Source of the DNA: Heptranchias perlo
Lineage: Eukaryota
Reading direction: 5' to 3'
Length of the DNA stretch: 64,000 nt
Assembly (NCBI RefSeq): GCF_035084215.1
Contig: NC_090366.1
Coordinates: 10,354,001 to 10,418,000, forward strand
The translations under genes were made by a program, and so were the position numbers. Within the stretch, counting starts at the first letter, position 1, and each line of letters starts with the position of its first letter. Positions 1 to 64,000 of this stretch are shown here, piece by piece. The notes beneath the pieces were generated by a model. It was given only the letters and a program-made list of their open reading frames with translations. It was not told the DNA's origin and ran no database searches.

Positions 1-231
1 AGCAATTGGTCCGTTTCATGCTGTTCACTATCCTGTTCTTGCTGCAGTCGGTATTCCGAATCAGTCATTGTAACAGCTGTTACAATCTGCTATGCAAACA
101 CTTCCAGCTGCTCATCTGGAGATTTTTCTGGTCATGATGGGTATTCTTGATTTTACTTCCCTTTCAACTTCAATAGTTAGAGAGCTGAAAAGGAGTTCAG
201 GATAGCTACCAAACTGAACGTAAAGTAATGT

Positions 232-432
232 GATAAATCACTGGTTAGGCCCCAGCTGGAGTATTGTGTCCAATTCTGGGCGCCGCACTTTAGGAAGGAT
301 GTCAAGGCCTTGGAGACGGTGCAGAGGAGATTTACCAGATTGCCATCAGGGATGAGGGACTAAAGTCACGTAGTGAGACTGGAGAAGCTGTGCTTGTTCG
401 CCTTAGAACAGAGAAGGTTAAGGGGGCATTTA
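232..432 (+). mobile_element. Old CR1 LINE RT fragment
   Basis: Encodes [29 protein letters not shown] CR1 ORF2 C-terminal sequence. A paralogous fragment follows the same flank at ~41897. Confidence 0.8.
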
Positions 433-433
433 C

Positions 434-1250
434 ATAAGAACATAAGAAATAGGAGCCGGAGTAGGCCAATCGGCCCATCGAGCCTGCTCCGCCATTCAAT
501 AAGATCATGGCGGATCTGATCCTAATCTCAAATCTAAATTCATGTCCAATTTCCTGCCCGCTCCCCGTAACCCCTAATTCCCTTTACTTCTAGGAAACTG
601 TCTATTTCTGTTTTAAATTTATTTAATGATGTAGCTTCCACAGCTTCCTGGGGCAGCAAATTCCACAGACCAACTACCCTCTGAGTGAAGAAGTTTCTCC
701 TCATCTCAGTTTTGAAAGAGCAGCCCCTTATTCTAAGATTATGCCCCCTAGTTCTAGTTTCACCCATCCTTGGGAACATCCTTACCGCATCCACCCGATC
801 AAGCCCCTTCACAATCTTATATGTTTCAATAAGATCGCCTCTCATTCTTCTGAACTCCAATGAGTAGAGTCCCAATCTACTCAACCTCTCCTCATATGTC
901 CGCCCCCTCATCCCCGGGATTAACCGAGTGAACCTTCTTTGTACTGCCTCGAGAGCAAGTATGTCTTTTCTTACGTATGGACACCAAAACTGTATGCAGT
1001 AGTTCAGGTGCGGTCTCACCAATACCTTATATAACTGCAGCAATACCTCCCTGTTTTTATATTCTATCCCCCTAGCAATAAAAGCCAACATTCCGTTGGC
1101 CTTCTTGATCACCTGCTGCACCTGCATGCTAACTTTTTGATTTTCTTGCACCAGGACCCCCACATCCCTTTGTACTGCAGTACTTTCCAGTTTCTTGCCA
1201 TTAAGATAATAACTTGCTCTCTGATTTTTCCTGCCAAAGTGCATAACCTC
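434..1250 (-). mobile_element. Young 5'-truncated CR1 LINE (open ORF2 C-terminus 540-1244 plus 3' UTR and TTCTTATG tail)
   Basis: ORF has CR1 motifs (LVRPHLNYCIQFW, RMRGDLIETYK, FFTQRVVGLWN). The CATAAGAA repeat at 434-448 is the 3' tail. A near-identical 3' end lies at 45136-45330. Confidence 0.92.
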
Positions 1251-1309
1251 ACAAGAGGGCGATGGGACACGACAAGTTAAAATAAAATTCCAGCAAGTCC
1301 ATTTTTATT

Positions 1310-61100: not shown

Positions 61101-62145
61101 CCCATCTTAACCTGACCGCTGGTTTTCCCCATGCCGTGCAGTATAATAATAATGAGCTGCCTTCCACCGCTACTATAGAGGAATTGACGGTTGGCTTTTC
61201 CAGTCCATCTGAAACAGGCAATAATGCAAAACCTGAAGCATGATATAGATCATAATTAAATTATTATGTTGGGTAAGAGGCCACTTCTAAATTGCAAACT
61301 TCTTATTTTACTGCCCCAGAATTTAACGTTACAACAAAAATGTGTATCTTCTAGAATTTACCTCTCTCTTCGAATTATGTCTCCTTGTGGCGTACGTACT
61401 TTGACGCTGGTACATCATTCAGGTCAATTCTGAAGCGCAACCAGAGCTGATATCTGGTGTCAGAGCTGAGACCAGCTTCAGATCCTAACTCGCCTTGGCA
61501 TTTTTTGTATCCCTTTACGACTGACTGAAATCAGAACCTTACTGGTAGATCTCAGAATAGCAATTAACAATGGCATAAACCAAACTCTTGGAGCCACCAG
61601 CATTAATTCATCGATGTGAATCTTCCCAAAATAATCTGACTGACAAGAATTGGCTGAGAGCCATTCCGATTCACTGATTATACAAGTGAGCTCTCACGGT
61701 ATCGAGATGGGGGTTTCTCGGTGCATTATTTGATGCGGTCCTAAACCATGAATAAATTGCTGATGGTGGAAGGAAAATTATTGAATCAGTCGGCCGACAG
61801 GTGAGGGCTACTAACTTCAGAGCAGACACTTACATTTGATCTCCAAGGTAAGAATCTGTGGAGAAGAAGTTGGGGAGCCATGAAGTAAAATTGAGCATCC
61901 TAGACTTCTCCCGTGAAAAGCGGACGATGGAGTGAACGTGAGCACCGATGAAACTCTCCAAGAACCGGAACGTTCATTAACAATTTCTGTTCCATCTTTA
62001 GTGTCCCATGGAAGAGGAAGGGACCCATTGTAATCGATCCACCTCAGTTGCAGTTTGTCATATGGGCAGCTGTGAGTGATTGAACAGGTCAGTCCAGCTG
62101 CTTTTGCAGAAGTCAGTTCCCCATAACCTGAAATCTGTGGCTTGT
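55166..62145 (-). CDS. Siglec-like gene C, partial (C2 62145-61834, disabled C2 61208-60951, C2 60330-60037, TM 59641-59542, tail 58029-57942 and 55333-55166); V and leader presumed beyond the window
   Basis: Exon sizes match gene A (312/258/294/100 vs 94/88/168). All are open except C2-2 (TAG 61009-61011; donor GT>AT). Motifs VTYAVV, VLYTSI, CEYVTI. It is either a pseudogene or an exon-skipping gene. Confidence 0.7.
55525..56170 (+). mobile_element. CR1 3' fragment
   Basis: YAERLEKLELFS..., 3' UTR and tail; shared with unit 1. Confidence 0.8.
56425..57372 (+). mobile_element. Probable solo LTR (948 bp) inserted in a minus-strand Deu-SINE remnant
   Basis: TGTAGGA...TCCCACA termini with 4-bp TSD CTGA. 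TATA-like GGTATAAGA at ~57030 and ATTAAA at ~57333. SINE sequence continues on both sides. Confidence 0.65.
59840..59982 (+). mobile_element. CR1 3' end
   Basis: 3' UTR and TTCTTATGTTCTTA tail; absent from the gene A intron. Confidence 0.75.
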
Positions 62146-63144
62146 CTGTAAGAACAAGAGCAAACAGGCGAATTAGGATAATTTCAATCTTAAAACCGGG
62201 GAGTGGCCTGTAGCATCACTTTCATCTAAATCTGACAAAGAATTAAAACAATAATTCGCATTTTGTCTTTTATGTATCGCAAGTAGATTTGTTACTCTGA
62301 ATTATTCCTCGCAGTTATAAAATAGTTTAGTGCCTCATCGGATAATATATGGCCTCACTTAAATAACCATCAGTCGTGTTATCTCGTATATTATTGATAT
62401 AATGCATCTAATAGCTGTAGTCAAGTGAACCAGTCTTGCACGCAAAATTTAGAATCAACGTTCGATCTATAAATATAAGCAACGAGTGTGATAGAGAATA
62501 ATGCAGATTAGAAAGTTCCCAGATTCTGTTGCAAAGGAACTTCAGTACAGAAAGATGATGCTCAAGAATGGACAGGCCAGATAAACGACTCGTAACATAG
62601 TCCTGTGTCGGGGAACCGCAGCAGTTTACTCTCGTGTGAAACGCATTGAGCTTTCCGTAGGAAATTCATTTTGGCGACATGACATCAGAATCAACAAATA
62701 AATGACACAATGTGAAAACATTTTTAACATAACTTTAAAATTTACTTATTCATTCGGATCTAATTAAATACCATGTGCTGAGAATATGTATAGGCACGAA
62801 AAAGAAATTGCATTAATTTAGCGCCTTTGACGTCCTCGCGACGTCCAGAAACGCAACACAGAACAGTAATTTGAAGTGTAATGAGGAAGTCATTGACAAC
62901 GTAACACGCAGGAGATTATTGGAGAAGATATTAAGAAGTTAGCAATAAACGGTACTGCAGAAACTGAAAGAGGAACTGTTCAGAAGGGAGGAAGCAATGA
63001 ATCGAAGTCCTGTGCAGTTTCTCAGAATGCTTCACATGAGTACGGAGACCCACAAGGTTATGTTCAGGGTCTGCTTCTACTCATTGTGTACATCGATGAC
63101 TTGGATATGGTGGGAGAGGGAGTGATGTCCAAATTTCCCAATAG

Positions 63145-63603
63145 TAATTATAGCAGATGTAGGGGGTTATCATATGAGGAAAGGTTGGATAAGTTGGGCC
63201 TGTATACACAGGAGTTCAGAGGAATGAGATGTGATCTTATTGAAACATATCAGATCCTGAGCGGACTGGAAGGGGTAGGTGCTGAGAGGACGTTTCCCCT
63301 TGTGGGAGAGATGAAAAATTGGGGCCACAGTTTAAAAAATGGTCACCCATTTAAGACGGAGATAAGGAGATTTTTTTTCTCTGAGAGGGTCATGAGTCTG
63401 TGGAACTCCCTTCCCCAAAGAGCGGTGGAGGCAGGATTATTGAATATTTTTAAGGTTGAGTTCGACAGATTCCTGATTAACAAGGTAGTCAAAGGTTATA
63501 GTGGTTGAGGTCGCAATCAGATCAGAGATGAGCTTATCAAATGACAGAGCAGGCTCGAGGGCCCGAATGGCCTACTCGTGCTCTTAATTCGTATGTTCGG
63601 ATG
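63145..63603 (+). mobile_element. CR1 3' fragment inserted in an older CR1 remnant
   Basis: YEERLDKLGLY, DLIETY, ERVMSLWNSLP. The older remnant is uninterrupted in gene A (~28200-28600). Confidence 0.82.
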
Positions 63604-64000
63604 TGATTTTAACATTTGAAAATGGTGCAAAACTGGCAGCATCGGATCGTTTGCCGACTATACTTCCCGCCCATTTTACTTTCAATTATAATGAGAGGCT
63701 GATCCGATTCCGCCATTTTGACAGCCATGCCAAAGTTGAACGTCCCACACAGCAAATAACTCCCGGAACTAATGCGAGTTTCAGGGGGATAACGGAGAGA
63801 TTGGAGAATGCGGAAATAAGAGGCAGATAAATTTCACTCTCAGTAAACATGAGGTGACAGATTTTAGATTGAACACTGGAACGCCGGTTGATGTGGAAGG
63901 GCAGAGGAATTCGTGGGTTCAAGTGCACAAGACAGTAAACAGCAGCTCCAGTGGAAATGGGCAAGAACCAGCTGCAGGAGTGCTGGTTTTAACGGCAACA

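Follow-up and report, generated by a model that had tools for sequence, protein, structure and literature searches.

The 64,000-nucleotide stretch of the Heptranchias perlo genome studied here (contig C45, positions 10,354,001-10,418,000; hereafter the window) carries genes of two unrelated receptor families, one comprising G-protein-coupled receptors (GPCRs) and one comprising Siglec-like immunoglobulin (Ig) receptors, which recur together as parts of a duplicated unit. The window was analysed with 200 kb on each side, 464 kb in total, and coordinates outside it are called window-equivalent, that is, window numbering extended both ways. Both window GPCR genes lie on the minus strand and consist of two exons with GT-AG introns and open frames. 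The gene that we call type 1 copy a (975 nt, 324 codons, 5994-1310) has its first exon, with the ATG and a GT donor, at 5925-5994 and the exon encoding the seven-transmembrane (7TM) body at 1310-2214. The other, type 2 copy b (972 nt, 323 codons, 48895-46892), has its exons at 48826-48895 and 46892-47793. The two genes match Pfam 7tm_1 (E 1e-19 and 5e-17), have a DRY-like FDRF/FDRS motif in an intact frame, and intact copies of the same type show dN/dS values of 0.21-0.26; the products are predicted class A receptors that appear to be under purifying selection.

The Siglec-like genes of the window are also on the minus strand. Gene A1 (12789-30190) is intact, and exon reading gave eight exons with canonical boundaries: signal (about 30190-30149), V (about 29551-29177), C2 (about 27305-26991), two Ig exons (about 26427-26164 and 25237-24944), transmembrane (about 24090-23996) and two tail exons (about 22476-22390 and 12956-12789). 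Gene B1 (55166-64000, continuing to window-equivalent 65814) is interrupted by a stop codon in the third of its Ig exons (60949-61206), and a further broken copy, the pseudogene A2, occupies 33976-37203, with stops in the V, C2 and third Ig exons, a split Ig exon and no transmembrane exon found. Overall, nine unit-type copies include a V exon, and three of them have neither stops nor breaks (A1, that of the third unit, C, and a copy at 3.51 Mb of C45).

According to PMC13324755, Siglecs have an N-terminal V-set domain, then C2-set domains, a single transmembrane segment and a cytoplasmic tail, and an arginine of the V-set domain is essential for sialoglycan binding. Gene A1 has this layout, its Ig exons match the V-set, Ig_CD22 and C2/I-set families of Pfam, and the best PDB match of its V domain is sialoadhesin (E 4e-10), CD33 and MAG scoring almost as well. 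Siglec V domains carry a typical cysteine pattern, and SCALIPC and QCSLL of A1 align with SCLLIPC and VCNLL of sialoadhesin, as does Trp2. The tails recall the consensus of immunoreceptor tyrosine-based inhibitory motifs (ITIM) and switch motifs (ITSM): VIYAVV and EYAKI in A1, whose middle motif has lost its Tyr, and VTYAVV, VLYTSI and EYVTI in B1. The Siglec-like label given by the first-pass annotation of this DNA, a reading of the letters without database searches, is justified in these respects, but the essential arginine is replaced, by Phe in A1 (YCFFL against YNFRF of sialoadhesin) and elsewhere, among unit copies and orthologues, by Ser, Ile or Leu. It is absent from all unit copies read and from the shark orthologues of the same V-exon clade (support 93/92), while three neighbouring plus-strand Siglec-like genes of another clade retain it (YYFR); the regular expression used to survey this residue left 10 of 29 rows unmatched and made a false match in a turtle MAG row. 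We therefore name these proteins Siglec-like inhibitory receptors and not Siglecs. The arginine-less V clade is common to Heterodontus, Pristiophorus, Carcharodon, Cetorhinus and Scyliorhinus; sharks have a Siglec-like clade lacking the sialic-acid arginine. A homologue search with the V exon for longer proteins gave 2 of 49 candidates. The V exons diverge fastest, with 67-81% identity against 82-95% for the other exons. As judged from their ITIM-type tails, the proteins of the unit are predicted inhibitory Ig receptors, and what the fast-changing V domain binds is likely not sialic acid in the conventional manner.

The repeated organisation is apparent when the window is compared with itself. 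Positions 1-419 align with 41668-42085 (78%, 420 bp), which bears out the earlier pairing of a flank at 1-230 with about 41670-41900. This alignment crosses without a break from the flank (1-230, whose first 100 bp or so resemble a plus-oriented GPCR first exon, as a remnant) into a fragment of a long interspersed nuclear element (LINE; 233-419, plus strand, one of about 29 copies in the 464 kb) that sits at the same site in units A and B. The unbroken passage into the LINE fragment indicates a duplication at the DNA level, as the first-pass annotation had concluded from shared CR1 insertions; the family name CR1 is a tentative label based on a motif. Further matches join 1320-2206 to 46902-47785 (72%, GPCR exon 2), 5919-6010 to 48820-48911 (84%, the GPCR exon 1 region), and 12426-13901 to 54820-56240 (72%, 1505 bp, with an intronic LINE fragment included). 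Collinear Siglec blocks follow at 22141-24255/57693-59799 (77%) and 25619-28345/60399-63163 (75%). The two Siglec last exons, with stops at 12789 and 55166, were thus correctly matched in that annotation, together with the exons beyond them, although it had not seen that the second gene carries a stop codon or that a broken copy lies at 34.0-37.2 kb.

The full order of the unit is flank, GPCR type 1, GPCR type 2, a dead tRNA-His and the Siglec-like gene. The 464 kb hold three units and one partial fourth, with flank copies at window-equivalent 1, 41668, 84930 and 116790. Unit C (window-equivalent 84.9-116.8 kb) is complete, every component being present, and reveals what the two window units have lost. 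Unit B follows unit C up to 44077 (C 88349) and restarts at 44079 (C 93332), a deletion of about 5 kb that took out GPCR type 1. In unit A, the match to the 3' flank of the type 2 gene (9867-10351) breaks off and restarts at 10358 within the tRNA remnant; here a deletion has taken out GPCR type 2. The window thus retains one survivor of each GPCR type, and their true partners lie outside it. A frame at 543-1304 gave no match in a Pfam search. The interval from the tRNA remnant to the 3' end of the Siglec gene contains about 1.2 kb of degenerate purine-rich simple repeat (52170-53400), which also occurs in unit C.

The first-pass annotation had treated the GPCRs at 1310-5994 and 46892-48895 as counterparts, a pairing that does not hold. 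Types 1 and 2 share 62% identity with a synonymous divergence (dS) of 0.76-0.84, values of old paralogues, whereas type 1 copies are 88-94% identical among themselves (dS 0.08-0.22) and the type 2 pair, copies b and c, has 98% protein identity (dS 0.039). Introns can be aligned within a type only: the 3.7-kb intron of the first window GPCR gave no blastn match at E<1e-3 to the intron of the second, and it matches type 1 introns at window-equivalent 89-92 and 121-123 kb at 71-78%. The open frames that had been noted despite heavy intron divergence are real, but the divergence is explained by hidden paralogy and not by this duplication. In a GPCR tree of 133 rows (a quick method with SH-aLRT support and no bootstrap, leaving out rows with fewer than 230 aligned residues), types 1 and 2 fall in separate clades (99 and 100). 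Both clades also contain proteins of rays and of other sharks, which places the split of the two types before that of sharks and rays, if the tree is right. The type 1 copies of H. perlo form their own five-row group (97). All C45 GPCRs belong to one clade (97) with sub-clades that include Heterodontus, Pristiophorus and ray proteins, and the closest named relatives of the window proteins are all from sharks and rays. With correct pairing, the dS of type 1 A/C is 0.17 against 0.13-0.20 for the C2/Ig exons of Siglec A1/C, and that of type 2 B/C is 0.039 against 0.00-0.05 for B1/C, with few sites per exon; this similarity fits joint copying of the two genes.

Beyond the array the two families separate. 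To the left runs a Siglec-only stretch of six V exons (window-equivalent -111 to -11 kb) and to the right a GPCR-only stretch of four genes of the same GPCR clade (140-198 kb), so that interleaving is limited to about 140 kb at the cluster border. Inverted unit-type DNA is found at C45:3.42-3.52 Mb, about 7 Mb from the window, at some 85-94% identity and followed by Siglec-only DNA. It retains four Siglec V exons and a single GPCR, which bears a stop, and its sole intact unit-type Siglec is P0122, whose own unit has no GPCR part. Over the 200 kb at C45:3.40-3.60 Mb we counted eight Siglec-type V exons and this one GPCR. The first-pass annotation had held that its proposal would fail if only two units existed; there are three, the partial fourth and this inverted copy. 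At a larger scale, C45:3.42-3.60 Mb and 10.24-10.46 Mb form a large inverted segmental duplication of about 90% identity with chimeric units. Of 38 Siglec V-exon matches, 35 lie on C45 in three clusters, and 200 kb of the third (C45:13.58-13.78 Mb) hold nine V exons and no GPCR. That region contains Siglec/CD22-like genes, two of them with 9-10 tandem near-identical Ig exons, and several short V-C2-Ig copies in both orientations.

According to these results, physical co-duplication at the DNA level is well supported, in more than the two units first recognised, but a joint expansion of the families as a single linked unit is not supported: unit A lost type 2, unit B lost type 1, and more than 1,000 members of the GPCR family lie elsewhere. 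We consider it quite probable that a segment spanning the border of two adjacent clusters was copied and that its copies then lost genes independently, the pairing being likely passive and not a working module. An old GPCR cluster would adjoin an old Siglec-like cluster on one chromosome; a border-spanning segment of 30-45 kb would have been copied, tandemly and in one case to a distant site in inverted orientation, with unequal crossing-over as the likely mechanism; and the copies would afterwards have lost GPCRs, tRNA or Siglec exons independently, the genes acting separately. Since one or the other gene was lost independently from each copy, the pairing is likely a by-product of adjacent clusters, and the members were not retained and lost together as in a functional cassette. 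Several observations weigh against this scenario. In units A and C alike, both a GPCR and a Siglec-like gene are still intact. The third Ig exon, in which B1 has its stop, is missing in several orthologues (P0126, P0129, P0130, P0133), so that B1 may work by skipping it. Moreover, the closest GPCR and Siglec-like relatives are found on contigs of equal size in Heterodontus (44,089,062 and 995,541 bp), Carcharodon (16,521,807) and Cetorhinus (13,667,426). Equal size within a species points to the same contig, a linkage at the contig level and not of gene order; with both families sharing contigs in three other sharks, one contig of only 995,541 bp, the adjacency appears to be of long standing and may be under selection. 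Finally, the sample of GPCR loci described below was drawn from the first 100 listed matches (contigs C2-C38) and not from the whole genome.

The contigs shared in other sharks and the two units with both genes intact would suit a co-regulated immune receptor complex of the C45 GPCR clade and the arginine-less Siglec-like clade, in which linkage is selected and a signal from the GPCR, activating or chemotactic, is damped by the ITIM receptor of the same cell. Such a complex would also agree with the single clade of C45 GPCRs, with an exon-1 pattern derived from the window GPCRs that matches seven places, all on C45 beside Siglec clusters, and with V-exon dN/dS values of 1.4-2.1 in four close pairs. 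However, this V-exon excess is weak (one-sided Fisher p of 0.025-0.056 for the best pair, which is marginal, and 0.25 for another), the GPCR deletions are reciprocal, GPCRs are almost totally lost from the inverted copy, and the same GPCR clade runs Siglec-free and the Siglec cluster GPCR-free on either side of the array; we regard a selected complex as unlikely. A read-through Siglec-GPCR fusion protein is suggested by the database model P0121 (1,547 aa, window 30190 to window-equivalent -27546), which maps over three same-strand genes, joining Siglec A1 to part of GPCR type 1 and to the five-Ig Siglec-like gene that follows. Yet separate starts are present in all three genes and separate stops in Siglec A1 and the GPCR, the model passes over the Siglec stop and cuts the 7TM domain short, its protein cluster has one member, and paralogues are annotated as separate proteins (P0122, P0123, P0033). 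A fusion is therefore very improbable, and P0121 is probably a run-on of the annotation, concealing two or three distinct genes. The 98% protein identity of type 2 copies b and c might recall uncollapsed haplotypes, an assembly artefact to which we give almost no credence: non-coding identity among units is 72-92%, with private insertions and deletions, and allelic copies would be expected far above this level. Contigs from three runs of one sample, guessed to be RNA, were compared with 1200-20200 and not used as evidence. Two cover the Siglec last exon (12796-12958) with 7-8 differences, which suggests that they come from a paralogue; the bin with GPCR exon 1 had no cover, and no Siglec-GPCR joint occurred among the 15 joints listed of 58.

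Border-spanning duplication, which we favour, resembles the birth-and-death evolution of tandem gene clusters that arise by segmental duplication, in its tandem units, shared old insertions, pseudogenes, fast-changing ligand-binding domain and passengers. It differs in that the shark unit straddles two unrelated receptor clusters and in that reciprocal deletions give a false one-to-one pairing. In mammals, the 19q13 region has CD33-related Siglecs near FPR1-3 and MAG/CD22 near FFAR1-3, so that Siglec genes there too adjoin immune-type GPCR clusters, although of different GPCR families; we know of no interleaved co-duplicated unit in that region. A literature search, mostly not covering subscription papers, found no description of the shark cluster or of the GPCR expansion. 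The duplication itself is real but ordinary and of little importance as a cassette; it serves chiefly as a clear example of hidden paralogy and of gene models fused in a database.

The tRNA-His copies of the unit are dead and were carried along as passengers. The pairing of remnants at 10362 and 51942 was sound insofar as 10358-10428, the 5' half of a decayed tRNA-His with its upstream flank, cut by the deletion, matches 51973-52042; but the first unit has two remnants, and none is a gene. The second (12083-12200) comprises a decayed tRNA-His with its 3' flank, is homologous to tRNA-His genes of an array on contig C38 and matches 51891-51996 over 12083-12188, and the unit B remnant (51891-52042) has both flanks; all three are on the minus strand. 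ARAGORN found no tRNA gene in the window, and a relaxed run made five low-stringency calls, none at the remnants. A cmscan search against Rfam gave no match at gathering threshold over the window and none at E<=1 in the two remnant stretches, and the remnants lack the complete cloverleaf with GUG anticodon of a tRNA-His gene. They align with an intact tRNA-His of C38 and have a 3' flank similar to that of tRNA-His copies in C38, C1048, C725 and C1246, which suggests that they arrived as genomic DNA. Two Harbinger-type DNA transposons also lie in the window. A remnant at 14020-16011, in the last Siglec intron, is absent from the copies at C45:3.45 and 3.51 Mb. The other, at 17955-22134, has terminal inverted repeats, a 3-bp target duplication (AAA), a Myb/SANT frame (plus strand, 18149-18952) and an open DDE transposase frame of 505 codons (DDE_Tnp_4, minus strand, 20349-21866); its insertion postdates the inverted duplication.

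Databases label the GPCR family 'probable GPR139', and the best PDB match of the family member P0033 is GPR139, as the GPR139-like label of the first-pass annotation implied, but the score is weak (E 4.6e-12, 49 bits, only slightly ahead of the prolactin-releasing peptide receptor at 45 bits); a PDB search with the type 2 exon at E<=1e-8 gave no matches. In the ESM Atlas, the neighbours are first clusters of chordate proteins named 'probable GPR139', and after them come invertebrate clusters that are FMRFamide-receptor-like. Distant relatives (26-33% identity) are present in bony vertebrates: against the shark GPCR, scores of 83-149 bits are reached by proteins of coelacanth, salamanders and teleosts (coelacanth and salamander 141-149), and the coelacanth and anchovy relatives score only 70 and 60 bits against human GPR139. 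Orthology to GPR139 was rejected on these scores, as other vertebrate proteins are much closer to the shark receptor than is human GPR139. PMC12208981 calls vertebrate GPR139 'highly conserved'. Unlike GPR139 and GPR142, the shark family exceeds 1,100 loci. Another paper describes GPR210 as a third orphan lineage beside GPR139 and GPR142, with members in coelacanth, gar and fishes (PMC6504862), a distribution like that of the relatives P0253, P0259 and P0286; the word 'shark' does not occur in that paper. The shark family may be an expansion of GPR210, which we offer as a candidate lead, and its distant relatives in coelacanth, salamanders and teleosts may themselves be GPR210.

More striking than the duplication is the size of this mostly intact GPCR family. 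A search of the H. perlo genome with the type 2 protein gave 4,608 first-look candidates, of which 125 were scored, all at E<1e-109 and ten of them on C45. A 29-nt degenerate GPCR motif has 1,105 exact matches genome-wide, against none for the reversed control, and only ten of these fall in the two fetched Siglec-GPCR regions. This number is a lower bound on family loci, because the motif misses all three genes of a stretch of C38 and the corresponding peptide motif is present in only 34 of 120 database matches. In a sample of 20 loci (every fifth among the first 100 listed motif matches), exon 2 is open over 286-289 codons counted from the motif in 19, and a Siglec-type match or a tRNA within 10 kb is seen at none of the 20. 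The stretch at C38:14.03-14.23 Mb has three family GPCRs, 24 tRNA genes and no Siglec-type match. Its tRNA array (Asp, His, Phe, Glu, Leu, Asn and Lys, six of them His) is interleaved with the GPCRs, and many near-identical GPCR copies and tRNA-His-like matches extend across C38:9-17.7 Mb, C1048, C725 and C1246; family GPCRs may have been co-amplified with tRNA arrays in these regions.

A single GPCR family of at least 1,105 loci, mostly intact in the sample, contrasts with the 'relative paucity' of GPCRs attributed to cartilaginous fishes in PMC8455134. The C45 locus is a place to test whether this giant family is immune or chemosensory. It is a long shot that the locus represents an ancient shark immune receptor complex, in which one clade of an orphan GPCR family of more than 1,100 members, possibly a GPR210 expansion, is the partner of the fast-evolving Siglec-like clade without the arginine. 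If this were true, the GPCR family would be a leukocyte sensor repertoire equal in size to the odorant receptors of a mammal, in a group of animals said to be poor in GPCRs.

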